Shown here in pieces: positions 1,961 to 41,029 of a stretch of 64,000 bases of DNA. The notes below the pieces were generated by a model. That model was not told the origin of the DNA. It ran no database searches and worked only from the letters and a program-made list of their open reading frames with translations. The stretch's first letter is position 1, and each line of letters opens with the position of its first letter. The position numbers and the translations under genes are program-made. Source of the stretch: Candidatus Zhuqueibacterota bacterium (GTDB lineage Bacteria > Zhuqueibacterota > Zhuqueibacteria > Thermofontimicrobiales > Thermofontimicrobiaceae); contig JBMOPW010000014.1 of the NCBI GenBank assembly GCA_049322915.1, positions 541,527 through 605,526 of the forward strand, read 5' to 3'.

Positions 1961-2117
1961 CCTGAATTATTCATGAATTCTACAATAGCCCAACTTAACA
2001 TTATGTTTTCATAATGTGTGAATGTGTATGCAAAATCAAACTCAGTTTTATATTCGAATTTTAAATTTATGCACCATTCAGGTTATCCCGCTTCCTTTAA
2101 AAATACAATGAATAATG
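1958..2117. mobile_element. MITE-like non-autonomous element, copy 1
   Basis: 1958-2085 (128 bp) is bounded by TAACCTGAAT/ATTCAGGTTA. An inverted homologous copy of the same length is at 39658-39785, and homology continues about 30 bp further (CCTTTAAAAATAC.ATGAATAATG). Confidence 0.7.
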
Positions 2118-2384
2118 GTAACCGATCACAGGGATTGAATGTTGTCAGGAGTTTTATTGACAGGATAACAGGATCGAAAGGATTTACAGGATAAATTTCT
2201 GGCGTTTTATGTCTAATAAACATAGACAATGGCTTCTCTGATAGCCTTGCCTGTTTCTTGAACAAAGATCACTTGACTATCAGACCCGTGCCTTGATCAA
2301 CGAGACAAAAACCTAGATCAATTATCCTGTCCATCCTTAACATCCTGTTATCCTGTCAGCTTTTGCATCCCTGTGATCGGTTAC
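2118..2384. mobile_element. MITE-like element with 18-bp perfect terminal inverted repeats and a nested internal inverted repeat
   Basis: GTAACCGATCACAGGGAT (2118-2135) / ATCCCTGTGATCGGTTAC (2367-2384); internal TGACAGGATAACAGGAT (2158-2174) / ATCCTGTTATCCTGTCA (2342-2358). Confidence 0.75.
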
Positions 2385-2447
2385 AACGGATGCACGCCTG
2401 GTCCCGAAACGAAAACATCGTGCTGAAATTAAGGTGATCTAACAAAT

Positions 2448-3782
2448 ATGGGTGAAAGAGTGATTCCCCAAAGCGGACATAGTGATAGAATCAGTACCCC
2501 GGAGGAACTGGCCAGATTTGAAATCGCGGGCAGAGCCGCATCGCAGTTGCTCTACCCTGAGGATAATGCGCAGGTCGCTGAAATATTGACCGCAGCGACC
2601 CGGGAAGGCAGAAAAGTGCTCATCGCCGGGAACAACAGCCAGCGCGATATTGGCGCCGCGATCGAGCGACCTGACTGGGTCATTTCCGTGACGAAAATGA
2701 ACTCGGTCGTAGAACATGATGTGGCGGATCTCATTGTCACGGTTCAGGCCGGCGCGCGACTGCCGTTCATGCAGAATTATCTCAGAAAATCGAATCAGCA
2801 ATTGTCACTGGAAATCCCTGGAGCGGAGGCCCGCACACTCGGAGGTATTGTGGCGACGAACAGTCCGAATGTCTGGCATTCTAGCTACGGCGGCTGTCGC
2901 GATTCAGTCCTGGGTATGAAAGTTGTCTTGCCCGATGGAAGTCTGATCCGCGCCGGGGGCAAGACGGTGAAAAATGTCGCCGGCTATGATTTGAGCAAGC
3001 TTTTCATCGGCACGTTCGGCACGCTGGGTGCGATTACTGAAGTCACCTTCAAATTGTCGCCCATCCCGGCCAGCCGTCAATCGCTCATCGTGGCGTTCGA
3101 TCAGGTTGCTGACGCGTTTTCATTTTCTCAAAAAATTTCCGCAATGAATTTTATAATCAGTCGATATGAATATTATAATCGCGCCTGCGCAGCGACAAAG
3201 TTGAAAGGTCTGATTTCCTCGCCGCAACAACATGGGGTGATTCTGACTGTGATCGGCCATCCGGCCATGGTGCAGGACAGCTCCGGTCGAATCAGAGACA
3301 TTGCCTCCGGGCATGGCGCTGTGGCTGTTCGCGCCATGACCGGGAGCGAGGAAGAATTCCTGCCGAAGCGAATTGCTGAAAATGGAATCACCTCCCACGA
3401 AGCGAATGTCAGGTTCAGCGTGCGCATCAGCGTTCCCAAAGCGAAACTGGCCGAGGCGGCGGCGGTCATCGAAGAGTTCGCCGGACAGCAGAATCTGACC
3501 GCGGCCATCCAGGCTCACATGTTCAGCGGCGTTCTGGACGCTGCATTTACGGCGCAGGAGGTGACTGGTGCTATTTTTCAGCCAATCTACCTGGAGTCGA
3601 TCCGGGAGAAAATCGCTGCGCTGCACGGATCGGTGACCGGGCTGCTCCTGCCTCTGGAACATCGAACGCCGGAGATGGTCTGGGGAAAGACCGGCGGTCA
3701 TTTCGGGCTGATGGCCGCAATCAAAAAGAAATACGACCCGAATGGCATTTTGGTCGCCGGCAGATTCGTCGGCGGGCTGTGA
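2448..3782 (+). CDS. glcE: FAD-binding oxidoreductase, GlcE-like
   Basis: RTLGGIVATN, GGKTVKNVAGYDLSKLFIGTFGTLG, C-terminal KKKYDPNGIL..GRF; lies between glcD and glcF. Confidence 0.82.
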   Translation: MGERVIPQSGHSDRISTPEELARFEIAGRAASQLLYPEDNAQVAEILTAATREGRKVLIAGNNSQRDIGAAIERPDWVISVTKMNSVVEHDVADLIVTVQAGARLPFMQNYLRKSNQQLSLEIPGAEARTLGGIVATNSPNVWHSSYGGCRDSVLGMKVVLPDGSLIRAGGKTVKNVAGYDLSKLFIGTFGTLGAITEVTFKLSPIPASRQSLIVAFDQVADAFSFSQKISAMNFIISRYEYYNRACAATKLKGLISSPQQHGVILTVIGHPAMVQDSSGRIRDIASGHGAVAVRAMTGSEEEFLPKRIAENGITSHEANVRFSVRISVPKAKLAEAAAVIEEFAGQQNLTAAIQAHMFSGVLDAAFTAQEVTGAIFQPIYLESIREKIAALHGSVTGLLLPLEHRTPEMVWGKTGGHFGLMAAIKKKYDPNGILVAGRFVGGL

Positions 3783-6340: not shown

Positions 6341-6619
6341 ATGAAACATAACGAATTCGAAGAAATTAAAAAGGTAAATGACATGTTCAATTTCACCAAT
6401 GAAGAAGAAAATTGGGAAGAGTCTTCCTGGGAAGAGGAAGATTGGAGCGAAGAAGACGACGATGACTGGAGCGAGGAAGACGACGAAGACTGGGAAGATG
6501 AAGAAGAATGGGAAGATGATGAAGAAGAATGGGAAGACGAAGAAGAATGGTCAGACGAAGAAGAAGAATGGGAAGACGAAGAAGAATGGGAAAATGACGA
6601 CCCAATGAATTGGAATTAA
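6341..6619 (+). CDS. Small, extremely acidic Trp-periodic low-complexity protein
   Basis: 92 aa, repeated (E/D)nW units with 11 Trp; GAGG RBS upstream, own terminator downstream. Confidence 0.65.
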   Translation: MKHNEFEEIKKVNDMFNFTNEEENWEESSWEEEDWSEEDDDDWSEEDDEDWEDEEEWEDDEEEWEDEEEWSDEEEEWEDEEEWENDDPMNWN

Positions 6620-7111: not shown

Positions 7112-10100
7112 ATGGCTAAACTCAAATACTTCCTTTCAATTGGTTTGATCGTGTCATTCGTTTTGCCGGCGTTTCTGCTGTCCCAGACAACGGGTAAGAT
7201 CGATGGCTATGTCAAGGATAAGAAGACAGGCGATCCGCTCCCAGGCGTCAATGTGACGCTGAAAACGACGGCAATTGGAGCGGCTACCGGGGCTGATGGT
7301 TATTACTATATGATCAACGTCCCGGCCGGGGACTATACTGTCACCGCCTCCATGATGGGCTACAAAACCTATTCTGTCCAGAACGTTCAGGTGGTCATTG
7401 ATCAGACAACCCGGGTTGATTTTAGTCTGGACGAGACGGTACTGGATGTCGGTGAGGAAATTGTCGTTACGGCTGAGCGACCGCTCATCGATCCCAGTGT
7501 GACGTCCAAAGTCTCCACCATGTCTTTTGATGAAATTAAAAATATGCCGGCGGAAGATATCAGCCGGGTCCTGGCGCTGCAATCGAACATCACCGTGCTC
7601 ACCAACACCCCGTATGCGAAGAGTGGCTACAACATCAGGGGGATTGAAGACATCCGGATGCGCGGAGGACGAAACAATGAGCTTGGCTTATTCATCGATG
7701 GCATGAAAGTGGGCAATCCTCTCTTCGGCGGATTTGGCACACGGATAAACAACAACGCCGTCAACCAGATGACAGTCGCTGCCGGCGGATTCAGCCCGGA
7801 GTACGGCAATGCGTTATCCGGCGTGATCAACCTGACCACGCGCGAAGGCGGCTCCAAATTATCCGGTCAATTGGAATATGGCACGTCCGTCCCATTTGGC
7901 CTTACTGCCCTGGCGTCTCAACGGCAGGAGGAGCGAAATTATCAGAATGTGCAATTCAGCATGAACGGACCTGTGCCATTCATCCCCAATCTGTCCTTCT
8001 TCTTTTCGACAGACCTGAGTTCGGAAGCAGGTACGCTCTATGAATTCGATGATATTATCTGGGATGACAACAGAGGCGATCTCCCCACATCCGCTGAGCT
8101 ATTCCAGGATTTCATTGAGGATGGTTCCATGGATTTGATCACCAAATCCCAGGTGGAGAGCGTACTTTCGCCAGTCGATGTGGGCGGAAAGCGCCGGTTC
8201 ATCAATCCCATGGATACATGGAAGGGCTGGCACGGCATGGGCTGGGATAATAGTTTCGATTATCTGGGCAAGCTCACCTACCGCATCAGTCCCATGATAA
8301 AACTGTCTCTCAGTTTGTCCCAATCCCAGAGCTACTCCCAGATCAATGACTATCACGCCGGGTATTATTACCATTTGCCCGGAGAGTGGTACAATGTGGA
8401 TGCGAGTCCCGTGGATACCCGAACCAATATTGACCGGCTCCTGGTGAGCGAAACCAGCGGGGAGACGTATTACCTCGAATCTGGATTGCCCTTCCCGGAC
8501 GAGTTCCCCGGCAGCGGCGGCGCGTATCAGGTATGGCACAGAAACGGCTCCGGCATGGCTGCGAGAAACGTCCAGTTTCGCCAGAGCAATCGTCAGGGTC
8601 TTGTCTGGAACCATACGATAAATCCATCCAATTTCTACACCATTCGTATTCAGCGATTCTTCCAGTCGCGGCGCATCCGCGTCATCAACGATTACAATCA
8701 TGTCTATGATGAAATTTTTGGGATGAAGAATATCTTCTCACCGGACTGGGATAACATCAAACAAAAGGATCAGTACAATCATTACAGCACCTACGGCGTC
8801 CTGGATCCCTGGGAAGGTTACTTCCGGGTCCGATACGACAATGTGTATTTTGAGGGAGATTCGAGCATCACGTACGACGTTCGGCTGGACTTCACGTCGC
8901 AGATCAACCGAAATCATCAACTGAAATTTGGCGGACAATTCGTGTATTACGATCTCAGCCGCCACGATGATCAGGGTTCATCCGGCCCATCGGATCATCC
9001 GACGGTGTACCACATGTTCCCCAAAGAGGGCGCGTTGTATTTGATGGATAAAATTGAATACGGCACTGTGGTGTTGAATGCGGGTATGCGCATTGACTAC
9101 GCCAATGCTGAAGGGGAAATGTACGCGGATCCATTGGATCCCATTGGCGAACAGGATATTGAAACGCCGATGATCGAATACAACGATTTTGAACGATCAA
9201 AAAAGAAATTCAAGGTAAGCCCGAGAATTGGCATGGCCTATCCGCTCACTTCCAAATCTGTCGTTCATTTTAATTTCGGGCATTTTTATCAGACGCCCAA
9301 TTATCGGGATTTATACCGCGCAACCGGCCAAGCGCGCGAACTGACCCTCAGAAGCGGCGAACTGATGGGCAACAACAATCTGGAACATGAAAAATCCATT
9401 CAGTACGAAGTCGGTTATCAGCAACAGATCGGCGATATCTACGGGCTTAATTTGACACTGTGGTCCAAGGAGACCACCAACCAGGTTGGCTCGGTGTACG
9501 TGCCGCCCTACTCCGATCCGGGAGGCGAAAATCCATTTGGCTATTACGTCTTTTTGAATAACAATTTTGGATCTGCGCGTGGACTGGATGTGACCCTGCA
9601 GCGGCGTTATCGCGACTTCTTCTCCGGGACGCTGAATTACACCTGGTCACGAGCCCGGGTATTGAAGCAAACTTCCTGGGATGGCTACTGGGATGACGAA
9701 AGTTCCAATACCTTGCCCAAACGGGAATCCATTGCCTCCTGGGATCAGCCTCATTCCGTTCGAATCAACCTCAATTTCAGCATTCCAAAAGACGCCGGCC
9801 CCACTGTGTTCAATCAAAAAGTGCTCTCCAACTTTGGCGTGAGTCTGGTGTACTTCGGAGAAAGTGGACGCGTTTACACGCCATACATGGGCGAAGCCGG
9901 TTATCTGGAAGAGGAGAATTCAGCGCGCTGGCCGTTCTTTCACCAGTTCGATTTGCGCGCCTATAAAAATGTCGAAATCTTCGGCTTGACCTATTCCTTC
10001 TTCGCCCAGGTGCGAAACCTGTTCGATCGGCAGAATGTCATTGATGGGTATTCGCAAACCGGATCGGCGACCGATCCCGGCACTGCCAATGCCGATTATA

Positions 10101-10253: not shown

Positions 10254-13200
10254 ATGGCAAAACCAAAAAATATAACGATATGGATATTGGCATTGATAAT
10301 AGTGTCACTGACAGGCCCCATTTCAGGCATCGCTCAGGAAAGATTGCCAGTCATTGATGATCAGAAAATTTTTCCAACTGACTTGAAAAAGCCGGCAAGC
10401 TTGTTTGATCGCGGAATCGCGTTTATGGATGCCGGAGAAATGCAGGTGAATGGCGTGGAAAATTTTGGCGTGATCGGCAATCAGGGTCTGCCTTATTGTA
10501 AACACGGCTTTTGGGGTGAAGTCCGTTGGATCATTCCCTATCTGGCGGTTCCGCCCCAACCGTGGGCTACCGCTATTCGGACGGAAGAGGGCGATATCGT
10601 CGATCGAAGTCAGTATTACAACGTCATCGAAAGCATCACCATGCATTTCGGCGTCGGCGTTCAGGGTTGGGGCTACACTGACTGGGAGGCGCAGGACCTG
10701 GGCAGCACGCAATTGATGGGCGATGACACCTGGTCTGATGTGCCGTTGATTGCTACCAGCACCCGTCCCAATTCCTGGCCGATGGGATATTTTGATAAAG
10801 ATCCGCTGTCGCCAACCTACAAGCAGTTCATTGAAACGCCCGACGTGCGGCATTGGCCTGGCTACTGGGCGCTGGACCCGGATCAGGAATCGCCCACGTT
10901 CGGACAGCCGCTGGAGGGCAAATTCGTTTCGGATAAAGATATTTTTTATATCATGAACGACAAGTACAATGGCATTCGCTGGGGCGATGAGGTCAATGTG
11001 GGCTTCCCCATTGGCTTTGATATGGAAGTCTCTGGCTATTGCTATTCGACCCGATCGTACAAAGATATTGTATTCTTCAACTACAATCTAATCTACCGGG
11101 ATGATATTACCGATCCCAACAGGCAGTCTCACACCGGCACAATCGATAGTCTCTATTTCGGTTTCCTGATCGATCCGGATCTTCCCGGACGCGATCCCTG
11201 GGGAAATACCGGCTACGAGCCCGGCTGGGCTGAAGACGATTACTGCATTGCCGATACGGTGCGCGACATTTTTGTAATGTTCGATAAAGACGGGTACGCG
11301 AAGGATGTCGATTCGCCGTACAGTGAAGGCCCTGTGTCCGCGCATGGCATTGCATATTTGAAGACGCCGAAGGATATCGGACTGACATCATTCCATTACT
11401 TCACACAGGAGGATTTCGACGCGGAATCCGGCGGGCAGAAAATGGAAAATATCATCTACGCTATGGCCAGCGGCCGTAAAGAAATTCTCACAGCGCAGGA
11501 TCAGCAGAAATATTTCCACGGCAGCGATCCGTTATTCGATGACTTGAATCTGCTGCGCGACTTGCAGGAGAGTCAGCCGAACGGAAGCCGTCCTGACCCG
11601 TGGTTTATCATGTCCTCCGGGCCATTCAGCGCAACGCCGGGAGACACCATCGCGCTGCATTTCTGCATCGTCGGCGGGGATGATGACCCCGGCGCTCTGG
11701 ACGCCGATGGCTTTCCGACCAATCCCTACGAAGTCCGTTTCGCAGATATCATCAATAATTTTGAAAAGGCCATGGAGTTGTACAGCAACAGCTTCCAGGG
11801 TACCGGCCCACCATTGACACCGACATTGAGCGCCGTGGGCACCAAAGTCCTGGATGAAAACGATATCCCGGTCATTTACGCCGAGGATGGCAAAGTCACG
11901 TTGTATTGGGATAATATCGCTGAAGAGACCATTGATATTTTGACGAAAGAGAAGGACTTCGAAGGCTATAAAATCTACAAAGCCTACTTCGATCGGGACC
12001 TGGATTATATCGATTGGGGGCAGGAGATTTATGAAATAACGGAGAAAGGTACTGTGGGCGATGTGCTCGCCTATGAACCAGTCTTCCAGTGCGATGTAAT
12101 CAATGACTACGAAGGTCTGGACCCCTATCAATCCTGGTTCTACCTGGGCGATAATAGCGGCATCGTTCATTCGTGGACGGATACCGATGTGACCAACGGC
12201 GTTCGCTATCGCTATTGCATCACGGCCTATGATCATCCGTATCCGGATCGATTGTTCAATGCGAATGAGACAGCCAAAGGCACGTCATCCAAGGACCTGT
12301 GCGTTGTGGACGTCATTCCCGGCGTTCGGCCCGGCGGCTATGTGCCAGCCAATATCGACACGGCATTTAAGCGCGTCTCCGGCCTTGGCAACGGCGTGCT
12401 GCAACTGAACGTGGTGGATGATAACGAGGTGTTGGGCCATACGTATCGGATTTCATTCAGCGATTCATCGGGCAAGCTCGCTTACAGCGTGTTTGATGAA
12501 GATGCTAAAATTTTCAAAGTGACCGACCATTCGCCCATCACAAACGAAAGCAGCGGCATCGATCCGGAGCCATTCCCGTTCTTCGACGGTGTTGGCATCA
12601 AAGTGATCAATTACGATAAGCCGGAGTATCTGGCCAATGAGTCGGGTTGGACGAAAATCCTGGGACCTGATACGAGCGATTATCGGATTAATGTTGTTCC
12701 ATTCACCCCCATTGCCGCGGACTATGAAATTCGGTTCCTCGGCGAAAACGCGGACACCAACGCCATTGGCGCCATGACGTTCCCATTCCAGGTATGGAAG
12801 GTGAGCGTTACCCCGCCGAAGCAAATGGATGTCTTGTATACCCCGCCCACCGGCGTGTATCCGAGCGGGGGACAAATTCGAATCTGGGAATATCTCACGC
12901 CGGGTTCGACTGTCCGAACGTTCACCTGGGTCTTTTCCATTACATGGGCCCCGGATACTGTCGTTGTTGGAACGGACACGACGTTCGTCAAAACATGGGG
13001 AGCCAGCCAAGAGCCGGCTGTTGGCGATGTCTACACGTTCAGGACCAAGAAACCCTTCAGTAATGATGTGTTCACATTCAGCACGTACAAGTTATCGACG
13101 AAAGCGGTGACCGAAGATGAACTGGACGCGATCAAAGCTGTGCCCAATCCCTATATTGTCGCATCGAAGACTGAACTTTACACTGGATCCTCAAAATGGG

Positions 13201-31099: not shown

Positions 31100-31609
31100 A
31101 TGAAAACAAAACTGAGTTTGGGACTGGCAATCGCTGTCATCGTGATTGCGACTGTGGTGTTTGCCCAGATTCCGATCAAAGAGCGACAGGCCAGACAGCC
31201 TCGTCTGGATAAGCTTGAATTGACGGATGAGCAGGAATCGAAAATTCAGGATCTCCATCTTGCTTTGCAGAAAGAAATTCTTCCGATGACGAGTAAAATT
31301 CGCTCACTCGGGGATGAGATCAAACAGGAAATGATCGCTGAAAAATTCAACCAGTCCAAAGTGAAAGGCCTCATTGAACAGAAAGAGCAGATTCGAACTG
31401 AGATTCAGTTCAAACGAGCGCTCAATCAACGGGCAGTTCGCGAAATTCTGACTCCGGAACAGCAGAAGAAATTTGACCTGGGTGTGCTGCGCATGGGAAA
31501 GAGAATGGGAATGCGATTCCACGGCGAAGACAGGCGGCCCGGCCGACCCATGCGCATGGGCATGGATCAGCCGGAACCGGAAGCCCCACTGCCTGATCGG
31601 GAACAATAA
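31100..31609 (+). CDS. Spy/CpxP-family periplasmic protein
   Basis: Signal peptide; LELTDEQESKI and ILTPEQQKKF LTxxQ motifs. Confidence 0.8.
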   Translation: MKTKLSLGLAIAVIVIATVVFAQIPIKERQARQPRLDKLELTDEQESKIQDLHLALQKEILPMTSKIRSLGDEIKQEMIAEKFNQSKVKGLIEQKEQIRTEIQFKRALNQRAVREILTPEQQKKFDLGVLRMGKRMGMRFHGEDRRPGRPMRMGMDQPEPEAPLPDREQ

Positions 31610-31909: not shown

Positions 31910-32048
31910 ATGAGATGTCAATATTGTTTTCAAATAATGAGTTGATTCTTGGAAAAATTTTATTAAATTATCAAAATTACACCGAACAGGAATGTCGAAG
32001 GTTTAAATTCCAGTCATCTGCTATAACTATATTCCACAGGAGAATATA

Positions 32049-35000
32049 ATGATTGAAATTGCCGGTTTTATAGGTAAAATATTATCTGAAAAGGCGCTCG
32101 AAAAATTGTTGAACAACATTTTTAATGGCAACAAATCCGCGCTGCAAAAAGCGTATGAAAAGGCGTTTGAAAATACAGTTAATTATTACGAGTATAATTA
32201 CCGCAACAAGTATGGTGCAAAGAATAACCGCTTTTTTAACTACCAGTCCGCGGAAGAAGAACTGATTAAACTCACCTTTGTCCGCCAAAATCCTGACCCG
32301 GACATGCTGGCGCAGATTGAGTGGGAGCATGGTGTAACAACTCCCCCAAAAATTATTTTAGATTTTGTGAACTACCTGCGTTATCAGATGTCCCAATTCA
32401 GGGAATGCGAGGACATTCTCGTGGAAAAGGATAAATATCAATCGTTGATGAATATTGATAAAAATACAGATGGAATTGCCCGAAATATTAAAGAGCTCAC
32501 CAACCATTTTGTAAAAAAAGAACCCGAAGAAGATACCAGGCCGCTCCACTGGAAACACCTTTACAACGCCTTTAAAGACCGGAAGCTGCATGAAGTCTCC
32601 ATAAAACATGTTGGCGGTGGTTTGTTGGGACCGGAAACCCTCCCGCTGGAAGATGTATTTTTTGTGCAGGATGCAGGTTTTCGATGGCTGGGAATTGGAA
32701 TGAAATCTGCCAAAGTGCAGAAGAAAGAAAACAAAAACAGTGAACTGTTCGATGAGCTGACTGTTTGCGAAGGACATGTTTGGCGAGCGCTGCAGGAGCT
32801 GCAAATAAATACAAGCCATATAAGAAAAATTATGGATGGAATCGATAAAGAAAAAATTTTAAAAATTGCCGCCGAGTTTGCAGTAAAATATAATAAACAT
32901 TCAACGGTTTTCGGCAATCAGCATTTTCAGCAAATTGTTGATCAATTGGCCCAACGATTTGAGTTGACTTCTTCTCACATCATTGCCGCGTTGAGTCTTT
33001 ATTTTACAGAAACGATTAAACGCGAGCCAGTCCTTGATTTGCTGAAACCGCCCTGTTCCGCATTTGTTATCGGGGACGCCGGCGTGGGAAAAACAACGGT
33101 GATGCGAAGGCTGGCTCTGAATTTATTCCATCGACTGGAAAACGGCGAAGAAAATGTACCGCTGCCTTTATTTGTCAGGCTTGACAAGATCGAGGATTAT
33201 ATAAAAGAAAAACAGAGCATCCATCAAGGGAAAAAAGCGTTGCTGCAATATATCGCTGACCATTGGAAATCGCATGTCAGTCATGAATCCGACATTTCAG
33301 CGTCTGCCATTGAACAATGCGAATTACCCCTGCAAATAATGCTGGATGGGTTGGATGAAATCCCATCCGCCAATATCCGGGAAAAATTAATCCTCGTCAT
33401 TCGCGATCTTGTTCAGGGACAAACGTGCAATATTATTATCACCTCCAGGCCGACTGCCGTGGATACGGCGTTAATTAAAACTTCTGAATTAAATGAGATT
33501 CGCCTGCTGGAATTAACATCCAAACAAACAAATGAATTTGTGAACAAATTTTTTGAAATATACAATTGTCCGAAATCAGGCAAAGCCGACAGCGCCAAAT
33601 TCAAATCTGCGTTAGAGCTTTCCGACGCGGCCATGCTGTTTGCCGGCAATCCGCTTTACCTGACCGTGATGATTTTAATGCACAAGAAAAATGAGGTGCT
33701 GCCCAAAAAAAGGTTGGAACTGTATGCGGAATTTTACCAGATGTTGCTGTTGCAGCGTTCGACCGGGCAATTCAAAGGCAAACTGGCAGACAGGCCTGCG
33801 CTGCGCATTCAGGATGAAAAAATTATTCACTGGGGCGAGGCCGTTTATACGCCTCTGCTGCAATGGATCGCTTACCTCACCCACAGCAATGACGCAGACA
33901 GCGTTAGCATCGAGAAACAATATGTGATTGACGCGATTAAAAAGGAAGATTTGCAGCAGGAGTTAAAACTGATCAGCCTGGAAAATCTGGCAGAACGATT
34001 CATTAATTTTGCCGATGAAGAGCTGGGATTGCTGGTCTCGCGGGGACAGTTTTACGGATTCAGCCATCGGTCGCTGCAGGAATTTTTAGCGGCCATGCAT
34101 CTGGCTGATTATCAGAAAGAACCATCCATTGAACAGTTTTGGACGGACCAGGCGCTGAAAAAACCGGATCGCTGGATGGAAGTGGCCCGGCTGCTGTTCT
34201 GCAAAATTCTGGATAAAAAATTTTTCGCGACCTGGGTGCGGGATATAAACGATACAAAAGATCCCCGCGTGATCCGGTTAATTCAATCCATTATTTTCGA
34301 TCTGGAAGAGTTCTTTCCCGGGGGCGGCGGCATTCAGTCGCAGAAGGAAAGTGTGCAAAAAGCGCTTGTTTCCCGGCGGGATAAATCCCACGGCTCACCG
34401 GACATGTTCCTCGCCTGCTCCGATGCACTTGGTTCCATGGATGTTCCGCCAATTTCCATTGCCGATCCGCCTGTGGTAAAATTGGTGGCACGGGAGCCGT
34501 TCACCATGGGGATTAATTATTTCGATGATGATACGAAACCTGAATTTAAGGCAACTTTGTCACCCTATTACATGGGGCAATACCCGGTCACCAATAAGGA
34601 ATTTGCCGAATTTATCAACGATGGCGGGTACACCGAGGAAAAATATTGGCGCAGCAGTCATGAAATGTTTACTTTTGATGGAAAAAAAATTTTAGAGGAT
34701 TTAAAAAATAAAACTCCTGAGTATTGGGATGACGAACGATTTGGCAAAAAACGTCCCCTGGTCCCTGTCGTGGGCGTGAGCTGGTACGAGGCCATGGCGT
34801 ATTGTTTATGGTGGAATGAAAAATATGGCGCGGCATGGGCAGAAAGTCATGGTCGTAAAAAAATACTGGTGCGCCTGCCCACCGAAGCGGAATGGGAATT
34901 TGCTGCGCGTGGCTATTCAGGCAGAAAATATGCCTGGGGCGATGAAAATATTGAAACGGACAGGTGTAATTTTTCTTCCTCCAACTTAGACAGAACCTCG

Positions 35001-35300
35001 ACTGTCGGCAGCTATCCCCGGGGCAAAACGCCGGACGTCGATCTGTACGACTTGAGCGGCAATGTCTGGGAATGGTGCATCGATTGGTACAATGAGAAAT
35101 TTTATGCGGAGTGCAAAAGACAGGGTGTCGTGGAAAATCCTGTATGCGCCAGTAAAGGTTCGTACCGCGTGATGCGCGGCGGTAGCTGGGACTTCACTGC
35201 TGACTACTGCCGATCGGCGAATCGTAGCAGGGGCCGTCCTGGAAGGCGTAACAGCCTTGTTGGCTTCCGCCTGGTGTTCGTCCCGCAGTCAGTTGTGTAG
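32049..35300 (+). CDS. DGR target 1: NACHT/STAND NTPase + FGE-sulfatase (C-type lectin fold) domain protein
   Basis: Walker A GDAGVGKTT, Walker B MLDGLDEI, ITSRP, NPLYLT, FSHRSLQEFLAA; FGE motifs VTNKEF, PVVGVSWYEA, RLPTEAEWEFAARG, LYDLSGNVWEWC, RGGSW, GFRL. Confidence 0.92.
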   Translation: MIEIAGFIGKILSEKALEKLLNNIFNGNKSALQKAYEKAFENTVNYYEYNYRNKYGAKNNRFFNYQSAEEELIKLTFVRQNPDPDMLAQIEWEHGVTTPPKIILDFVNYLRYQMSQFRECEDILVEKDKYQSLMNIDKNTDGIARNIKELTNHFVKKEPEEDTRPLHWKHLYNAFKDRKLHEVSIKHVGGGLLGPETLPLEDVFFVQDAGFRWLGIGMKSAKVQKKENKNSELFDELTVCEGHVWRALQELQINTSHIRKIMDGIDKEKILKIAAEFAVKYNKHSTVFGNQHFQQIVDQLAQRFELTSSHIIAALSLYFTETIKREPVLDLLKPPCSAFVIGDAGVGKTTVMRRLALNLFHRLENGEENVPLPLFVRLDKIEDYIKEKQSIHQGKKALLQYIADHWKSHVSHESDISASAIEQCELPLQIMLDGLDEIPSANIREKLILVIRDLVQGQTCNIIITSRPTAVDTALIKTSELNEIRLLELTSKQTNEFVNKFFEIYNCPKSGKADSAKFKSALELSDAAMLFAGNPLYLTVMILMHKKNEVLPKKRLELYAEFYQMLLLQRSTGQFKGKLADRPALRIQDEKIIHWGEAVYTPLLQWIAYLTHSNDADSVSIEKQYVIDAIKKEDLQQELKLISLENLAERFINFADEELGLLVSRGQFYGFSHRSLQEFLAAMHLADYQKEPSIEQFWTDQALKKPDRWMEVARLLFCKILDKKFFATWVRDINDTKDPRVIRLIQSIIFDLEEFFPGGGGIQSQKESVQKALVSRRDKSHGSPDMFLACSDALGSMDVPPISIADPPVVKLVAREPFTMGINYFDDDTKPEFKATLSPYYMGQYPVTNKEFAEFINDGGYTEEKYWRSSHEMFTFDGKKILEDLKNKTPEYWDDERFGKKRPLVPVVGVSWYEAMAYCLWWNEKYGAAWAESHGRKKILVRLPTEAEWEFAARGYSGRKYAWGDENIETDRCNFSSSNLDRTSTVGSYPRGKTPDVDLYDLSGNVWEWCIDWYNEKFYAECKRQGVVENPVCASKGSYRVMRGGSWDFTADYCRSANRSRGRPGRRNSLVGFRLVFVPQSVV
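35156..35288 (+). repeat. DGR variable repeat VR1
   Basis: 133 bp colinear with the TR; 15 mismatches, all at TR adenines. Confidence 0.95.
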
Positions 35301-35401
35301 TTATTCAATTTTCCTGTGAGCAAAACGAGCTGTTTGAACGGAGTGAACGAGGCGGCGAGGGACGAGCCGCCGAGAGAGTGGAGTGAAAACAGCGAGTTGG
35401 G
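35289..35401 (+). repeat. Post-VR conserved element (IMH/hairpin region), copy 1
   Basis: 113 bp, 4 mismatches to 38019-38131; not present after the TR. Confidence 0.85.
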
Positions 35402-35456
35402 GGGGATGTATAAAATTAGTGAAAATACATTATAAATAGGCTGATTAGATTGAAAC

Positions 35457-35543
35457 CTGTCATTGCGAGGAACGTTTTTTGTGACGAAGCAATCCCCTTG
35501 GGCACAGTAGATTGCTTCGACAAAAACCGTCTCGCAATGACAG
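35457..35543. repeat. 87-bp palindromic element (GTCATTGCGAG...CTCGCAATGAC type)
   Basis: CTGTCATTGCGAG/CTCGCAATGACAG outer arms and CGAAGCAATC/GATTGCTTCG inner arms. Confidence 0.8.
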
Positions 35544-35599
35544 TATCCTAGAAAGATTTAGATGTACTATGCCAATATATTGAAATGGGCATCAATCGC

Positions 35600-35732
35600 A
35601 GGTTCGAACCGCGTGATGCGCGGCGGTAGCTGGAACAACACTGCTGACAACTGCCGATCAGCGAATCGTAACAGGAACAATCCTGAAAGGCGTAACAACA
35701 ATGTTGGCTTCCGCCTGGTGTTCGTCCCGCAG
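35600..35732 (+). repeat. DGR template repeat TR
   Basis: 34 adenines, 11 AAY codons in the target frame; all 99 non-A positions are identical in VR1 and VR2. Confidence 0.95.
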
Positions 35733-35862
35733 CTCACAGGAAAGTTGGATGACTACCTCTGAACAGATTGCTGTCCCACTCGCTGAAAGGCGATAAATAA
35801 CGAAACAGAATACACAGCGCTGGTAGGGCAAATGGATGTTTGTTTCGAAGGCGCTGTGTGTT
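35733..35862 (+). ncRNA. Putative structured spacer of the DGR template RNA
   Basis: Hairpins TCGC-tgaaag-GCGA and AATACACAGCGC(35809-35820)/GCGCTGTGTGTT(35851-35862) enclosing TGGTAG...CGAAG. Confidence 0.55.
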
Positions 35863-35900
35863 TGATAATTGGATTGTTTTCAAGAGGAAAGGTTATACAA

Positions 35901-38030
35901 ATGGTTGAGATTTTTAAGCCCATTATTGATCTGTTAACAAACCCTTTATCTCATTTATTTAAAACTCTCGGATTCGGTGACAAGGCGGCAAATGCCTTTG
36001 CAGCGGTTTTGCTTGCATTAATTTTCTATCTTATCATTATCTTATTGAAAGATCAATTTCGAAGGTTTAAAAATAGGCGCAGCGCCAGAGATTTAAAACC
36101 CGAATTTGATTATAAGACAATTAAAGGCTTTCGTGAAATTTTTATTCCCTCAAGATATGATCGGATTTCTCCCAATAGGTATGATAATCCCCATGAGGCG
36201 CATAAGCATAGTGAACCCCGTAAGCTTATTCCATTTATGTTAAAAAAGTCATTTAACGAACGGGTTGAAAATGAAAAGTTTTATTTAATTCTTGGAGACT
36301 CCGGGATGGGGAAGACCGCATTTATGGTCAATTTGTATATAAAATTTCATTCAGTTTTCAGATTCAACCGGAATCATAAAATGAAATTATTTCGTTTCCA
36401 GCCGCCGGATATAGATGATCCCGAAGACGTAATTGAGAGAATAAAAAAGATAGATCGCGAGGAAGCAAAAAATACAATTTTATTATTAGATGGATTAGAC
36501 GAAGACCCTTATATTTTATCCAAAGATCCGAAAGTCACCGATGACGCTGCTTTTGAGAAGAGATTAAATAATATCGCCAGCAGCACTAAAAATTTTTGTG
36601 ATGTTGTTATCACCTGCCGTACACAATATTTTCCACAGGAAGAGTTGCAGGATTATGTCCTTAGTATTCGAAAACCTGATGGCGGATTTTTTAAATTAAA
36701 TAAATATTACTTGTTTCCCTTTTCTGATAAAGAAGTTAAAAAGTATTTAAGAAAAAAATATGGAGTGCTCAGATTTTGGAACCGGCCAAAAAAGAAAAAA
36801 GCGAAATTGTTAGTTGAGAATTCTCATAAATTAATGTCCAGACCGATGTTGCTCTCGTATCTGGATGATTTAGTTGTTGAGGAGGATGTTAAATATAGAA
36901 ATTGTTATCAAATTTATGAAACGCTGATTGAAAAGTGGATTGACCGGGAAAGTAAAAAATGTAAAAAACCAAATGAACAGGAGAAATTTAAAAAAAATTT
37001 AAGAAAGCTGGCGCACGAAACTGCGCTGGATATGTACGCGAAATGGCAATCCGAGGGTGTGTTGTTTCTTAAAAAAGAGGATACCGATAACCTGGCAAAT
37101 AAGTATAATATTGAATTAAAACCTGAAGAGGTTAAAGGCAAGTCCTTGCTCACCTGCGATCCGTTGCGAAACTGGAAATTCGCCCATAAATCCATTCTTG
37201 AATATTTTCTGGCAATAGAATGTTTTAATAAATTGGAGTTTGCAGTAAACTTCAATTTCACCGGTATGGACATGGTGAAACATTTTTATGAAGAGATGCA
37301 GCCCTTTATTAATGCAACCGATTTTGTCAAAGTGGAATTTGGTGTTTTTAAAATGGGTGATGAGTATGGCGATCTAGGCTCTAGTGAAAAACCGGTGCAT
37401 GATGTAAAAATTTCCGATTTTTATATGAGTAAAACTTTAGTGACGCAAAAATTCTAGAACGATATTATGGGAAGCAATCCATCACATTTTAAGAATGGAG
37501 GAGAATACCCGGTTGAACAAGTGAACTGGGATGATGTTCAGGAATTTATTGAAAAGTTACACCAAAAAACAGGCATGAAGTTTCGTTTGCCCACAGAGGC
37601 TGAATGGGAATATGCAGCCCGCGGCGGCCACAAAGCCCCGGTAAAAGATGGCGTGCATGTTGGGAAATTCAGGTATGCCGGCAGCGATAACCTGGATGAA
37701 GTGGGTTGGTATGAAGGAAATTCAGATAAAAAAACTCACCCGGTTGCCGGTAAAAAACCGAATGAACTGGGGCTGTACGACATGAGCGGCAATGTGTGGG
37801 AGTGGTGTCTGGACTGGTATGATGAAAAATATTATAAAGAATGTCAGAAACAGGGTGTTGTGGAAAATCCTGAGTGCACCAGGGAAGGTTCGTACCGCGT
37901 GATGCGCGGCGGTAGCTGGAACAACACTGCTGACTACTGCCGATCAGCGTATCGTCGCGGGGGCAATCCTGTTAGGCGTTTCGACTTTGTTGGCTTCCGC
38001 CTGGTGTTCGTCCCGCAGTCAGTTGTGTAG
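35901..38030 (+). pseudogene. DGR target 2: TM + NACHT NTPase + FGE/CLec protein interrupted by an in-frame TAG at 37455-37457
   Basis: ORFs 35832-37457 and 37467-38030 share a frame; VTQKF*NDIMGSNPSHF spans the stop. GDSGMGKT, LLLDGLDE, FAHKSILEYF; FGE motifs downstream. Confidence 0.8.
37886..38018 (+). repeat. DGR variable repeat VR2
   Basis: 133 bp colinear with the TR; 15 mismatches, all at TR adenines. Confidence 0.95.
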
Positions 38031-38131
38031 TTATTCAATTTTCCTGTGAGCAAAACGAGCTGTTTGAACGGAGTGAACGAGGCGGCGAGGGACGAGCCGC
38101 TGAGAGAATGGAGAGAGAACAGCGAGTTGGG
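38019..38131 (+). repeat. Post-VR conserved element, copy 2
   Basis: Near-identical to 35289-35401. Confidence 0.85.
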
Positions 38132-38203
38132 TTTGCGGCGTATTGATAGAATTAAATCTATTTTTGGTCTATGCACGTGCGCGTAATGTTAGTCGTTGAA
38201 ACG

Positions 38204-38857
38204 AGCCCCAACGGGGCGAGATACTTTAGCTCAGGGCAACGCCCTGAGTAGATGGTAATTAACACGAACAAATCACCACAACACCCATCAACAAACCGAG
38301 GGTGCCATCACCCAAACAGGAGAGAAAGGAGGAATGATGCCACAAAGCCTGTCCAAAGTATACATTCATTTAGTGTTCAGCACAAAAAATCAAAAAGAAA
38401 TTATCGATCCTGACATTGAAAAAGAGTTGTATCCCTACATGGCGGCGCTATTTCGTGAAAGCGATTCACCGGCGATTATTATAAATGGTGTATCGAATCA
38501 TGTGCATAATTTATTTTTACTCTCCCGGAAATTTGCAATCAGCCAGGTTGTTGAAAACGTAAAAAAGAAATCATCAAAATGGATAAAAACAAAGGGTGAG
38601 CGGTATAAATCATTCTATTGGCAAAACGGATACGGGACTTTTTCAATCAGTCGCACGCATGTTGATGTGGTGAAAAAATATATTTTAAACCAGAAATCGC
38701 ATCATGCACAGACCTCGTTTCAGGGCGAATACCGGAAACTCCTTAATAAATACAATATCGAATATGATGAGCGATATGTTTGGGATTAGGGCGTTTATTG
38801 AGTTCCGTGGTCATCAGGGCGTTGCCCCGGGTTGGGATAAGTCGCTCCGTTGGAGCT
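38204..38857 (+). mobile_element. IS200/IS605-like (Y1) element flanked by inverted REP-like double hairpins
   Basis: AGCCCCAACGGGGCG...CAGGGCAACGCCCTGA (38204-38247) and its inverted counterpart TCAGGGCGTTGCCC...CGCTCCGTTGGAGCT (38814-38857) flank tnpA. Confidence 0.75.
38334..38789 (+). CDS. tnpA: IS200/IS605-family Y1 (HUH) transposase
   Basis: YIHLVFSTK, NHVH (HUH), KKKSSKWI, WQNGYGTFSIS, YILNQKSHH. Confidence 0.9.
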   Translation: MMPQSLSKVYIHLVFSTKNQKEIIDPDIEKELYPYMAALFRESDSPAIIINGVSNHVHNLFLLSRKFAISQVVENVKKKSSKWIKTKGERYKSFYWQNGYGTFSISRTHVDVVKKYILNQKSHHAQTSFQGEYRKLLNKYNIEYDERYVWD

Positions 38858-39036
38858 AAAATTCAGAAAATTCCACCGCAAGGTTTTTTCCCTGGTATCG
38901 TCAAAACAAGTAGTCGTTCTAATCATGAATTAATTCAGACCAACCACAGGAAATTTTTTTAACGTGCATGGCAGATTTTTCGAATGTGACACATAGCGCA
39001 GAAATCCGGAGACAGAAACGTGATCGGGCGACTCCC

Positions 39037-39612
39037 ATGGATGAGCTGGAACTGCTGGAAAAATTGAAATCCGGACAGGCGGATGCATTCAAATTTCTGG
39101 TGGATGCGTACCATGAAAAAGTATTGAATACCTGCTTTCGATTTCTGAATAATAAAGAGGACGCGGAGGATTTGGCCCAGGAAGTCTTTGTGACGGTGTA
39201 CCGGTCGGTCGGTGATTTTCGGGGGGAATCCAAAATTTCATCGTGGATTTATCGCATTGCCGTCACTCGTTCGCTGGACGCCTATCGCAGGAAAAACCGG
39301 AAAAAGCGTTTCGCGAAAATGCAGCGCCTGATTGGACTTAAGGAAAACGAAGATGCGCTGCAAATTCCCGATGCTCAGAATCCATCCGCTGAATTGGAGG
39401 ACAAAGAACGGGCGGCGATATTGCAGCGGGCGCTGAATGGGCTGCCGGAGAATCAGCGCGCGGTCATCACGTTGAACAAGTACGAGGGGTTCAGCCAAAA
39501 AGAAATTGCAGACATCATGGGGACATCTGTTTCGTCGGTCGAGTCGTTGATGCATCGTGGAAAGAAGAATTTGTTTAAACGGCTGTACGCGTACTATGAT
39601 AAAATTATTTAA
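39037..39612 (+). CDS. ECF RNA polymerase sigma factor
   Basis: DAEDLAQEVF, FRGESKISSWIYRIA, LPENQR...EGFSQKEIADIMGTSVSSVES. Confidence 0.9.
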   Translation: MDELELLEKLKSGQADAFKFLVDAYHEKVLNTCFRFLNNKEDAEDLAQEVFVTVYRSVGDFRGESKISSWIYRIAVTRSLDAYRRKNRKKRFAKMQRLIGLKENEDALQIPDAQNPSAELEDKERAAILQRALNGLPENQRAVITLNKYEGFSQKEIADIMGTSVSSVESLMHRGKKNLFKRLYAYYDKII

Positions 39613-39618
39613 TGTACT

Positions 39619-39785
39619 TAGCCTGCATTATTCATAGTATTTTTAAAGGAGGCTGGCTAACCTGAATGGTGCTCTTTTTAGAATAAACGTATAAAAACTG
39701 AGTTTCAAAATAGCTTAGCCTTTAGCTAATTGAAAATCTAAATGTTGACTCAAATTCTGAGCAAGTTCATGAATAATTCAGGTTA
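39619..39785. mobile_element. MITE-like element, copy 2 (inverted relative to 1958-2117)
   Basis: Ends TAGCCTGCATTATTCAT / ATGAATAATTCAGGTTA, internal TAACCTGAATGGTGC at 39658. Confidence 0.7.
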
Positions 39786-40045
39786 GACGCAACTCTGGAA
39801 AATTCGGACATCCTTCCTTGCTCCCCTTCAAAGGGGGGATGCGGTCAACTTTAGCTATTGGCTTTCATTGACAAGTAGCGATTGAACGTTGACAATTGAC
39901 TATTTCTTTTTTCCTTTCAATGGCGAATTGCAAAGGGAGAATTGTCAATTGTGAATGAGGAATTGATGTTACTATAATATTTTACTATTATTTATATGAA
40001 TGACCAGTTAAAATTTTGGCGCCTATATCATTATTGGGCATTCGC

Positions 40046-40073
40046 GTAGTGGACGGTCGCGACTGTCCACTAC
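40046..40073. repeat. GTAG-type REP-like palindrome
   Basis: GTAGTGGACGGTCGCGACTGTCCACTAC. Confidence 0.6.
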
Positions 40074-40165
40074 ATATACAAAAGTGGATCGAATTTATTG
40101 CACATGCTTTCAACTGGTCCTTCATATTATTCATATAACCACATCTTTTTCGAAGAGGGATAAAG

Positions 40166-40474
40166 ATGAACCGAAAACAAAAAATCGAACAGGAAATTGA
40201 AAAAACGCTCGGGCAATTTGAGCGGGCGGAACGGCTGCCGTCCAATCCTTATTTCCACACCCGGGTTCAGGCGCGACTCAATGAGACGCCGGAGCCGAGC
40301 GGGGTGTTAAAACCGATATTCCTCGCAGTCCTGCTCACGCTGAATATCCTGACGGCCGTTTACTTCATTGGCGGAGGAACCTCGCAGTCGACGGCCCGCA
40401 GCGATTTGCTGAGCGAATTTGCCCAGGAAATTGGTCTTGAAGAAAGCGAAACTGAATTCATCAATATTCAATAA
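40166..40474 (+). CDS. Putative single-TM anti-sigma factor
   Basis: NPYFHTRVQARL motif then a TM helix; lies downstream of the ECF sigma. Confidence 0.6.
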   Translation: MNRKQKIEQEIEKTLGQFERAERLPSNPYFHTRVQARLNETPEPSGVLKPIFLAVLLTLNILTAVYFIGGGTSQSTARSDLLSEFAQEIGLEESETEFINIQ

Positions 40475-40483
40475 GGTGCGACG

Positions 40484-41029
40484 ATGGATATTTTTACAAA
40501 AAACAGACTTACCATAATCACCATTATTTTGCTGGTCATTTTCAACCTGATTACGCTGGCCATTATTTGGAGTGAAAAAATTCGCCCATCGGGGAGACCA
40601 CTTGCGCAGCATCCGATTGAGCAGCGTATCAGGACAGTCATGTTCCTGAAAAATGAACTGGGGCTGAAGCCGGACCAGGTTCGGGAATATCGCACGCTTC
40701 GCTCGCAGTACCGGGAGCGGATGAGAACAAACAGCGAAGAGATCAGGATGTTAAAAAAGGAATTGCTCAACCAGTTATTTCAGGATAAAATAGACAGCCT
40801 GGAGGTGGAGCGAATCATCGGTCGCATTGGTGATAAGCAGGAGCATATCGAGCGACTCACATTGGGCCATTTCCATCAGTTGAAAAAATTATGCGGCAAT
40901 GACCAGCAGCAGAAGCTGCATCGACTGCTGGGTGAATTGTTTCGTCCGCCGGATCGTCCGCCTGAAATCGACGAGGACATGCCCCGGCCGCAACATCCCG
41001 ATGTTCGGCCCCCTCGGGAGGAATACTGA
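40484..41029 (+). CDS. Periplasmic heavy-metal-sensor/Spy-like protein
   Basis: N-terminal TM, FLKNELGLKPDQ, helical body, LCGNDQQQKL. Confidence 0.7.
   Translation: MDIFTKNRLTIITIILLVIFNLITLAIIWSEKIRPSGRPLAQHPIEQRIRTVMFLKNELGLKPDQVREYRTLRSQYRERMRTNSEEIRMLKKELLNQLFQDKIDSLEVERIIGRIGDKQEHIERLTLGHFHQLKKLCGNDQQQKLHRLLGELFRPPDRPPEIDEDMPRPQHPDVRPPREEY

Follow-up and report, generated by a model that had tools for sequence, protein, structure and literature searches.

A template repeat and two NLR-like sensor genes written from it, probably separated from their reverse transcriptase, in a Zhuqueibacterota-like genome

Introduction

Can a pair of hypervariable sensor genes still be diversified when the template that wrote them is in place and no reverse transcriptase (RT) is found beside it? 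The question is raised by a locus on contig JBMOPW010000014.1 of assembly GCA_049322915.1, where a stretch of 64,000 nucleotides (positions 541,527 to 605,526; here called the window) was analyzed. Window positions 31972-38204 carry two target genes of a diversity-generating retroelement (DGR), target 1 (T1) and target 2 (T2), with a single template repeat (TR) between them. The reading favored here, at a probability of roughly 0.6, is that this is a DGR-written cassette of NLR-like sensors whose diversifying engine has been lost, T1 remaining as a sensor of fixed specificity and T2 as a pseudogene. A preliminary description, made from the sequence of the window, had proposed an adaptive-like receptor pair with membrane-acting effectors in a host of the FCB group.

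Genes of this general kind have been described before. In their passages on STAND NTPase-FGS proteins, Kaur, Iyer, Burroughs and Aravind (eLife 2021) describe these proteins as widespread, with variable N-terminal effectors or effector-associated domains (EADs) and linked to DGRs, and propose as a hypothesis that they are analogs of hypermutating immune receptors. The parts of Doré et al. (PNAS 2024) that concern such targets describe clade 5D DGRs of Thiohalocapsa PB-PSB1 and other multicellular bacteria, including a DGR 3 with two NACHT-CLec (C-type lectin) targets. Many of the targets in these parts of the paper carry uncharacterized N-terminal extensions, incomplete loci with inferred trans activity are reported, and diversification in natural populations was demonstrated for most loci. 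NTPase-containing targets and HRDC-type ('architecture C') cassettes (14/372 DGRs) appear in the relevant sections of Wu et al. (NAR 2018). Literature searches combining KSB1 or Zhuqueibacterota with DGR or RT yielded no report of such targets (one paper for KSB1 and DGR, on another subject; none for Zhuqueibacterota and reverse transcriptase); survey supplements lay outside the search and may list KSB1 loci.

Results

Template repeat and variable regions

A sequence of 133 nt occurs three times in the locus: at the end of T1 (variable region 1, VR1, 35156-35288), in the intergenic space as the TR (35600-35732) and at the end of T2 (VR2, 37886-38018). These elements, the two genes and their parts all lie on the forward strand. 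The TR contains 34 adenines, of which 15 are changed in VR1 and 15 in VR2, and all differences between the TR and either VR fall on these adenines (15/15 in each case). None of the 99 remaining positions is changed in VR1 or in VR2, so that 99/99 are identical in all three copies. The 113 nt of coding sequence directly upstream of the VRs are identical at 88 of 113 positions (78%) between T1 and T2, and comparison of these two values indicates that both VRs were overwritten from the TR after the two genes had diverged. The earlier proposal that both genes are DGR-written was therefore borne out.

The TR specifies 19 variable codons, ten of them AAC or AAT, none of which can become a stop codon, and its coding capacity is about 10^17.5 protein variants per VR. 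The last 30 nt are identical in TR, VR1 and VR2, as in an IMH-like element. In both T1 and T2 the VR is placed at the C-terminus of a domain with the C-type-lectin/FGE fold; the T1-family and T2-family profiles both match FGE structures, and among solved structures the DGR protein TvpA (2y3c) comes closest to the variable domain, at E 1.7e-48 in the search with the T2-family profile. TvpA is a lipoprotein and not an NTPase fusion, unlike T1 and T2. The VRs are followed by duplicate 3' flanks at 35289-35401 and 38019-38131, which are identical at 109 of 113 positions and have no further copy in the genome. The flank of VR1 contains a 6-bp GC hairpin (35351-35371), and the hairpins following the VRs fold no better than shuffled sequences (z -1.28 and -0.24).

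Domain architecture of the two targets

T1 (32049-35300, 1083 aa) is intact and consists of an N-terminal module, a pre-NACHT helical region, a NACHT domain, a helical and winged-helix region and an FGE/CLec domain. Residues 339-503 (33063-33557) match Pfam NACHT with 54.9 bits (cut-off 26.7), and residues 817-1076 (34497-35276) match Pfam FGE-sulfatase with E 1.8e-50; this confirms the order of domains first proposed for T1. The NTPase contains the Walker A motif GDAGVGKTT (33072-33098), the Walker B motif IMLDGLDE (33336-33359) and TSRP (33441-33452), followed by the winged-helix signature FSHRSLQEFLAA (34059-34094), of which His673 is invariant in 12/12 family members. In an alignment of 12 T1-family members the NTPase motifs are invariant or almost so. 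A match to the NACHT antiphage protein EruA in NCBIfam is weak (29.8 bits against a cut-off of 1000).

T2 is divided by an in-frame TAG codon (37455-37457). The 518 codons before it (35901-37454) encode a short tail, a transmembrane (TM) helix, an NTPase, a winged-helix region and the start of the FGE domain, and the remainder of the FGE/CLec domain follows at 37458-38030, the C-terminal part matching FGE-sulfatase with E 1.9e-39. The NTPase matches nSTAND3 with 29.4-29.8 bits (cut-off 27.2) and NACHT with 24.7-25.3 bits, under the cut-off of 26.7; within the T2 family (n=27) nSTAND3 is matched in 20/27 and NACHT in 7/27. A DLKPEFDY sequence (36090-36113) precedes the motifs GDSGMGKTA (Walker A, 36294-36320), LLLDGLDED (Walker B, 36480-36506), TCRTQY and the winged-helix FAHKSILEYFLA (37179-37214), and in an alignment of 14 T2-family proteins the NTPase motifs are again invariant or almost so. 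The Walker, sensor arginine and winged-helix histidine (FxHxSxQEaLAA) names are those which we take to apply to these motifs in both proteins. The Walker A/B and FxHxS motifs noted previously are therefore present and conserved in both families, and the assignment of T2 as a NACHT protein with a VR-bearing lectin domain held for the STAND-class motifs, the nSTAND3 match and VR2, but not for the NACHT score or for an unbroken frame.

An AlphaFold model of T2 residues 24-495, built with a 27-sequence alignment, had a pLDDT of 79.4 and a pTM of 0.73. Foldseek returned 126 matches at E ≤ 1e-3, the best being NOD2 (5irm, E 2.9e-9), and those among the 50 top ranks were all animal NLRs (NOD2, NLRP3, NLRC4/NAIP and NLRP1/2/7/9). 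The TM-scores to NLR structures were modest, 0.36-0.44, as expected of multi-domain chains. The NBD-HD1-WHD-HD2 fold of solved NLRs was thus seen for the T2 model, in a comparison that covered T2. An NTPase outside the NACHT/STAND class, which would have spoken against the first interpretation, was not what the Pfam matches, the motifs and the similarity of the T2 model to NOD2 and NLRP3 indicated. Judged from these features, T1 and T2 belong to two different protein families, and both are NLR-like STAND NTPases with DGR-written lectin-fold C-termini.

Search for the reverse transcriptase and accessory gene

Neither an RT nor an accessory gene was found in the 64-kb window, and no RVT_1 match was obtained on its contig, C14. 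The space separating the two targets has no open reading frame (ORF) of at least 80 aa. In the 299 nt from T1 to the TR, which is the place of the accessory gene and the RT in relatives, only a REP/MITE-like palindrome is present. In the complete source assembly (G000; 6.25 Mb, 45 contigs, 96.3% complete) RVT_1 matches occur only on contigs C16 and C34. The clade of cognate RTs found in the related genomes G118, G051 and G135 was not found in this assembly, and a tblastn search of it with the HRDC accessory protein of these relatives gave a best E of 0.031.

Contig C16 carries a complete DGR of its own, with an FGE target, an Avd accessory gene (NF033474, 108.6 bits), a TR and a 357-aa RT; Avd occurs nowhere else in G000. 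The RT of this system is 34-37% identical to the cognate RTs, its TR is 73% identical to the window TR over 92 nt, and no similarity was detected between the TR flanks beyond the TR core. The C16 system lies at C16:7981-10856 (loci L002 and L111), and its target is not a STAND protein. The target is preceded by a HEAT-like ORF, a Ser/Thr kinase and an FHA-domain regulator, with a run of N upstream of the target. The RT of C34 is a fusion of RT, TPR and archaeo-eukaryotic primase (AEP) beside Cas6 and a Card1-like gene, and is not a DGR RT. This 982-aa RT-GIIM-TPR-AEP primase (TOTE)-Gam-like protein is encoded at C34:428837-433978 (L112), and the Card1-like neighbor is a CARF nuclease.

Related template loci

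Together with some 130 nt of downstream sequence, the TR is 73-78% identical at the DNA level to the T2-linked TRs of the genomes G147, G155 and G118. The 3' spacer (35733-35870) is conserved at 73-79% identity in many related TR loci, and RNAalifold predicted a hairpin at 35809-35862, held by compensatory changes, together with smaller stems. Eight of the 41 predicted pairs are changed on both sides in four sequences, and covariation in the hairpin is suggestive at this depth.

Three relatives retain the engine. G118 has the order HRDC accessory, RT, TR and T2 ortholog (66-67% identity), with 20/20 TR/VR differences at A, and G051 has a T1 ortholog followed by the HRDC accessory, RT and TR, with 25/25 differences at A. 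G135 has a T1 ortholog (67% identity) with an HRDC gene, which appears frameshifted, and an RT downstream. In this last locus (L101, G135:C168) the T1 ortholog is separated from the HRDC/RT genes by approximately 2 kb of nested, MITE-like direct repeats and a gene resembling a DUF559 endonuclease (1500-3600). The three cognate RTs are 64-72% identical to one another.

Two further genomes carry a template and a T2 ortholog. In G147 (91% complete) the TR is followed by an intact T2 ortholog, with 17/18 differences at A, and no DGR-type RT was found at E ≤ 1e-10. In G155 the TR is followed by a T2 ortholog that is cut before the VR, and the RTs of this genome are distant (42-46% identity). The G155 ortholog ends at 9830-9850 of its locus (L114, G155:C36), where the upstream TR is kept; positions 1-140 of this locus recur at 10928-11067 with 100% identity.

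A metagenome scan with the junction pattern of TR end and spacer gave 36 loci, many on contigs too short to judge; 9/36 were not TR-like (≤53% identity to the window TR) and four were VR ends. Thirteen TR-like loci were informative, their upstream sequence being 1.4 kb or longer. A cognate-type RT (63-77% identity) ended 59-270 nt before the junction in eight of these 13, six of the eight with an HRDC gene upstream of the RT, and five of the 13 had no RT anywhere in the locus. The contig names of four of the five RT-less loci belong to one series, and these probably represent one lineage; another reservation is that L149, an adenine-poor member of the RT-less set, may be a VR instead. With the window, G147 and G155, these five loci indicate that RT-less modules of template and target recur in the lineage. 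In three other metagenome loci (L118, L125 and L127) a VR end is followed by sequence 75% identical to the window TR spacer, so in this lineage a VR and a TR can have over 130 nt of 3' flank in common.

As neither the cognate RT nor the HRDC accessory was found in the locus or the assembly, ongoing hypervariation of T1 and T2 is doubtful, and the engine has probably gone from the source genome. Several observations weigh against a cassette that has lost its engine and gone quiet. At 96.3% completeness in 45 contigs, the cognate RT could sit in unassembled sequence or on another replicon, and the complete Avd-type DGR of C16 might act in trans. All 34 adenines are still present in the TR, the spacer hairpin is intact, and neither VR1 nor VR2 has drifted outside adenine positions, all of which fit recent or continuing activity. 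The recurrence of RT-less modules could mean a maintained state served in trans and not decay. Logan contigs show no VR variants, and such contigs drop rare alleles. Among curated defense proteins (PADLOC), T1 gave only a P-loop-level match (mad8, E 0.0019) and T2 gave none.

The best-surviving alternative is that the cassette is still diversifying, the TR-spacer RNA being copied in trans by the C16 Avd-type RT or by an unassembled or mobile cognate RT of the HRDC type. The intact template and hairpin, the contrast between 0/99 changes at non-adenine positions of both VRs and 78% identity in the adjoining coding flank, the complete RT and Avd system in the same genome and the recurrence of RT-less modules all speak for it. 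Published passages do as well, since Kaur et al. (2021) allow there for an RT and an accessory gene located 'elsewhere in the genome', and Doré et al. (2024), in the sections on incomplete loci, infer trans activity and report RT-bearing structural variants in long reads. The trans cases printed in those sections of Doré et al. are, however, VRs that match the RT-linked TR itself, and not a second TR as would be needed here. The C16 RT is also remote from the cognate clade, with Avd and not HRDC as its accessory, and the low identity of the two TRs and the lack of detectable similarity between their flanks argue against its use of the window template. T2 is broken, and G147 and G155 are likewise without a cognate RT, with the T2 ortholog of G155 cut before its VR. 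Continued diversification is on this evidence less likely than loss of the engine. A stronger form of the same idea, in which the RT-less cassettes of template, spacer and target from the HRDC-type lineage are a maintained mobile state, passing from genome to genome with no RT of their own and rewritten in trans by a host DGR RT (here the Avd-type RT of C16) or by a transient one, is unlikely; if it were true, the NLR-like sensors would get occasional bursts of re-diversification.

Interruption of target 2

Loss of the engine is accompanied in the favored reading by loss of T2. The gene is present as two pieces in the same frame, 35832-37457 (541 aa) and 37467-38030 (187 aa), between which the FGE domain is divided. 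The ATG at 35832 sits inside the conserved non-coding hairpin, and the first residue of the homologs corresponds to 35901. When X was entered for the stop in the alignment, the TAG codon fell at a conserved aromatic position, at which 13 homologs have W (8), F (3) or Y (2), and as tryptophan is the most frequent residue the codon looks like a change of TGG to TAG. All 13 aligned homologs are uninterrupted at this site, and the homologs listed are mostly single chains of about 700 aa. T2-family matches were found in 29 of 167 genomes of the phylum (tallies over this set include the unpublished G158 and G162, on which no specific claim rests).

A contig of 2212 nt from the public run X1, with a depth of 60, covers 35703-37914 and shows 0 differences from the window, the TAG included. 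As X1 is probably the source sample, this agreement excludes a slip of assembly and leaves room for a minority allele in the population. Contigs from the runs X2-X4 contained only fragments of related or repeated sequence. Recoding of TAG was considered and ruled out, as TAG also terminates both T1 and T2 and is therefore a stop codon in the source organism.

T2 could be functional in spite of the TAG if the codon were a minority allele or consensus error, if it were read through, or if the gene encoded a split protein of a 541-aa NTPase and a 187-aa lectin part. An ATG at 37467 lies 9 nt past the stop, VR2 is free of non-adenine drift and the rest of T2 is intact and conserved. On the other side, the separate X1 assembly, albeit probably from the same sample, has the same codon, TAG is a stop codon of this organism, the FGE fold itself is split by the break, and the homologs are mostly single chains that are uninterrupted at this point. 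A working T2 is thus improbable, and the idea of a receptor pair is weakened by the premature stop.

The N-terminal regions

The N-terminal module of T1 (approximately residues 1-155, 32049-32513) is all-helical and belongs to a rare family. It is followed by the pre-NACHT region (residues 160-335, 32526-33053), which includes a confidently modeled small helical sub-domain at residues 226-327. Among 1.84 billion representative proteins, residues 1-335 gave 26 matches at E ≤ 1e-3. The model of this N-terminus is all-helical with a pLDDT of 71, its first helices being of low confidence (pLDDT 58-67). Foldseek gave nothing at E ≤ 1e-3, the best VIA-align hit (CagA, Z 6.0) is inside the background for helical models, and so are the helix-turn-helix-like folds matched by the sub-domain (Z 4.3-5.5). 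No Pfam family matches the N-module, as anticipated when this part was first described as a helical region without a recognized family. Assignment of the N-module to the NACHT N-terminal helical families NNH1/2/3 (Atlas 0.85-0.88) was unconfirmed by hmmscan at E ≤ 1.

The N-module appears to act as a swappable module. In protein P0011 a DUF4062 domain stands in place of it, and the metagenomic protein P0155 (448 aa) combines the N-module (40% identity, E 2.8e-26) with a CAP12/Pycsar TIR domain (E 9.9e-27) and a C-terminal region of about 140 aa; this is the sole effector fusion of the module found. By these associations it resembles an adaptor, in the sense of the EADs in the corresponding passages of Kaur et al. 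(2021). Of two marks of such domains, fusion to effector domains elsewhere was found once (n=1, P0155), and the occurrence of at least two copies per genome was not found, because the module is single-copy in G000 and gave one match in each of the 8 carrier genomes among 167 of the phylum. These 8 carry T1 orthologs with the N-module; a scan of genome contigs with the T1-family alignment was swamped by the FGE motif RLPTEAEW (78 loci, nearly all distant FGE proteins). The exchange with DUF4062 and the fusion to TIR argue for an adaptor or regulatory role of the module rather than a pore, and make it a candidate for a new signaling or adaptor domain.

T1 has no transmembrane segment, its maximum KD19 of 1.43 being located inside the NTPase. 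The amphipathic helix first proposed for its N-terminus did not hold up, since the first 30 residues are weakly amphipathic (Eisenberg moment 0.07-0.46). The TM segment proposed for T2 was upheld by a single strongly hydrophobic N-terminal helix (35994-36047, residues 32-49 counted from 35901; KD19 2.79), which is followed by a basic stretch and is conserved in the aligned members of the T2 family (more than 1000 matches). From its sequence the helix looks like an anchor, and by the positive-inside rule the NTPase and lectin domain of T2 would be placed in the cytoplasm.

That the two proteins form an adaptive-like receptor pair in which an amphipathic T1 helix and the T2 TM helix permeabilize the membrane on activation is very unlikely: the conserved, strongly hydrophobic helix of T2 and the statement, in the part of Doré et al. 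(2024) on STAND defense proteins, that N-terminal effectors are the rule would favor it, but the N-terminus of T1 is a soluble helical module with weakly amphipathic first helices of low confidence that exchanges with DUF4062 and is fused to TIR, and T2 combines what would be ordinary anchoring by one helix and a basic stretch with a frame cut by TAG.

The accessory block and its neighborhood

T1, the TR and T2 form an accessory block of 6.2 kb (31972-38204), which is replaced by 76 nt in G124, a genome of the same genus. There the flanking genes adjoin one another, and the match on the right side extends through window 40124-40978. GC content is 0.38-0.48 in the block and about 0.50 in its flanks, and inspection by eye showed no target-site duplication or inverted repeats at the block ends. 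Adjoining targets of the T1 and T2 families were found only in this window.

The near-perfect palindrome between T1 and the TR (87 nt, 35457-35543) has a DNA fold of -30.9 kcal/mol (z -8.79). Other copies lie at C14:117609, C44:160374, C16:25380, C26:227599, C7:141057 and C35:107694, and the palindrome reaches very high depth in two metagenome runs. An IS200-like Y1_Tnp transposase gene (38334-38789, E 3.4e-24) is located just outside the cassette, 2.8 kb downstream of the palindrome. The empty site of G124 has a copy as well, from which approximately 100 nt that include the gene start are missing.

The genes of the left flank encode a DUF1761 protein and an LTXXQ protein, and those of the right flank the IS200-like Y1 transposase and an ECF sigma factor. 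The cassette is placed between two genes for LTXXQ/Metal_resist periplasmic proteins (31100-31609 and the 38968-41029 region). Beside the ECF sigma factor is a small ORF with a hydrophobic stretch (40166-40474), which may encode a membrane or anti-sigma protein. The neighborhood looks like one of envelope stress, not a defense island. Elsewhere in the window, at 6451-6609, are tandem repeats of 18-24 nt rich in GAA, GAC and TGG, which would give an acidic D/E/W-rich repeat if translated.

Discussion

The evidence favors a DGR-written cassette of NLR-like sensors that has outlived its engine. T1 would be soluble, its NACHT domain preceded by the rare helical N-module, and T2, which is nSTAND3/NACHT-like, would be anchored in the membrane through its single N-terminal helix, with both sensors facing the cytoplasm. 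Each ends in a TvpA-like FGE/C-type-lectin domain, the putative ligand-binding tip of which (19 variable codons) was written by mutagenic retrohoming from the single TR between the genes. Following the NLR/Avs paradigm and the printed hypotheses, the variable lectin surface may bind an invader or another ligand; binding would release the NACHT module for nucleotide exchange and oligomerization, upon which the N-terminal module would signal or recruit an effector. The immune role, the ligand and the effector of T1 and T2 are putative and drawn by analogy. Because the HRDC accessory and the RT are absent from the locus and were not found in the assembly, and T2 is cut by a nonsense codon, the specificity of T1 is probably now fixed and T2 is probably a pseudogene.

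The tripartite order of N-module, NTPase and C-terminal sensor is shared with the bNACHT and Avs anti-phage STAND proteins, and the T2 model superposes on NOD2, NLRP3 and NLRC4. The sensors of bNACHT and Avs proteins are repeats or other fixed domains, unlike the DGR-written lectin folds of T1 and T2. The order of variable N-module, STAND NTPase and C-terminal FGS domain is likewise that of the systems in the pertinent passages of Kaur et al. (2021). The present locus differs from the systems of those passages in the lack of a Pfam match for the T1 N-module, in having a TR but no RT and in its broken copy, and the host is KSB1-like where cyanobacteria are stressed there.

As with DGR 3 and DGR 6 in the relevant parts of Doré et al. 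(2024), there are two tandem targets, each with a single CLec domain, a central STAND NTPase and an uncharacterized N-terminal extension. The clade 5D loci of those parts further resemble the present one in the combination of one soluble and one TM target, in incomplete loci and in transposon-shaped neighborhoods, a comparison that concerns features of targets and loci and not placement of an RT in the clade, the accessory of the present lineage being of the HRDC type. Diversification is seen there in populations, whereas here it is read from the TR/VR pattern alone. In Treponema denticola TvpA and the HRDC-type DGRs, as treated in sections of Wu et al. (2018), a similar likeness is found, since TvpA is the best solved relative and relatives of the cassette use an HRDC accessory beside the RT; the remote targets in those sections share an RT-linked TR, whereas the window has a TR without an RT. 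With the same architecture in Kaur et al. (2021) and Doré et al. (2024), as far as the passages cited extend, the fusion of an NTPase to a DGR-written FGE/CLec domain is of a kind already published, and the locus is a further example of it; new is the host lineage.

The host genome appears to be KSB1/Zhuqueibacterota-like, full-length homologs carrying the name 'candidate division KSB1', which NCBI puts in the FCB group as the preliminary description had supposed. Its proposal of an adaptive-like sensor agrees with the hypotheses printed in the cited parts of Kaur et al. (2021) and Doré et al. (2024), which the proteins may fit by analogy, but ongoing hypervariation is doubtful in a genome where the cognate RT and HRDC accessory were not found.

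DGR-diversified NLR-like sensors are the nearest bacterial analog of receptors varied by hypermutation. The locus adds an example in a little-studied phylum, in the form of a compact 6.2-kb cassette in which one template is common to two different NTPase families. We know of no such sensor that has been characterized experimentally. The cassette is also a clear case, one of several in its lineage, of a template and targets outlasting their RT. If an RT encoded elsewhere serves such cassettes, DGRs would be less specific than has been supposed; if the cassettes are relics, they would show how hypervariable sensors turn into fixed ones.

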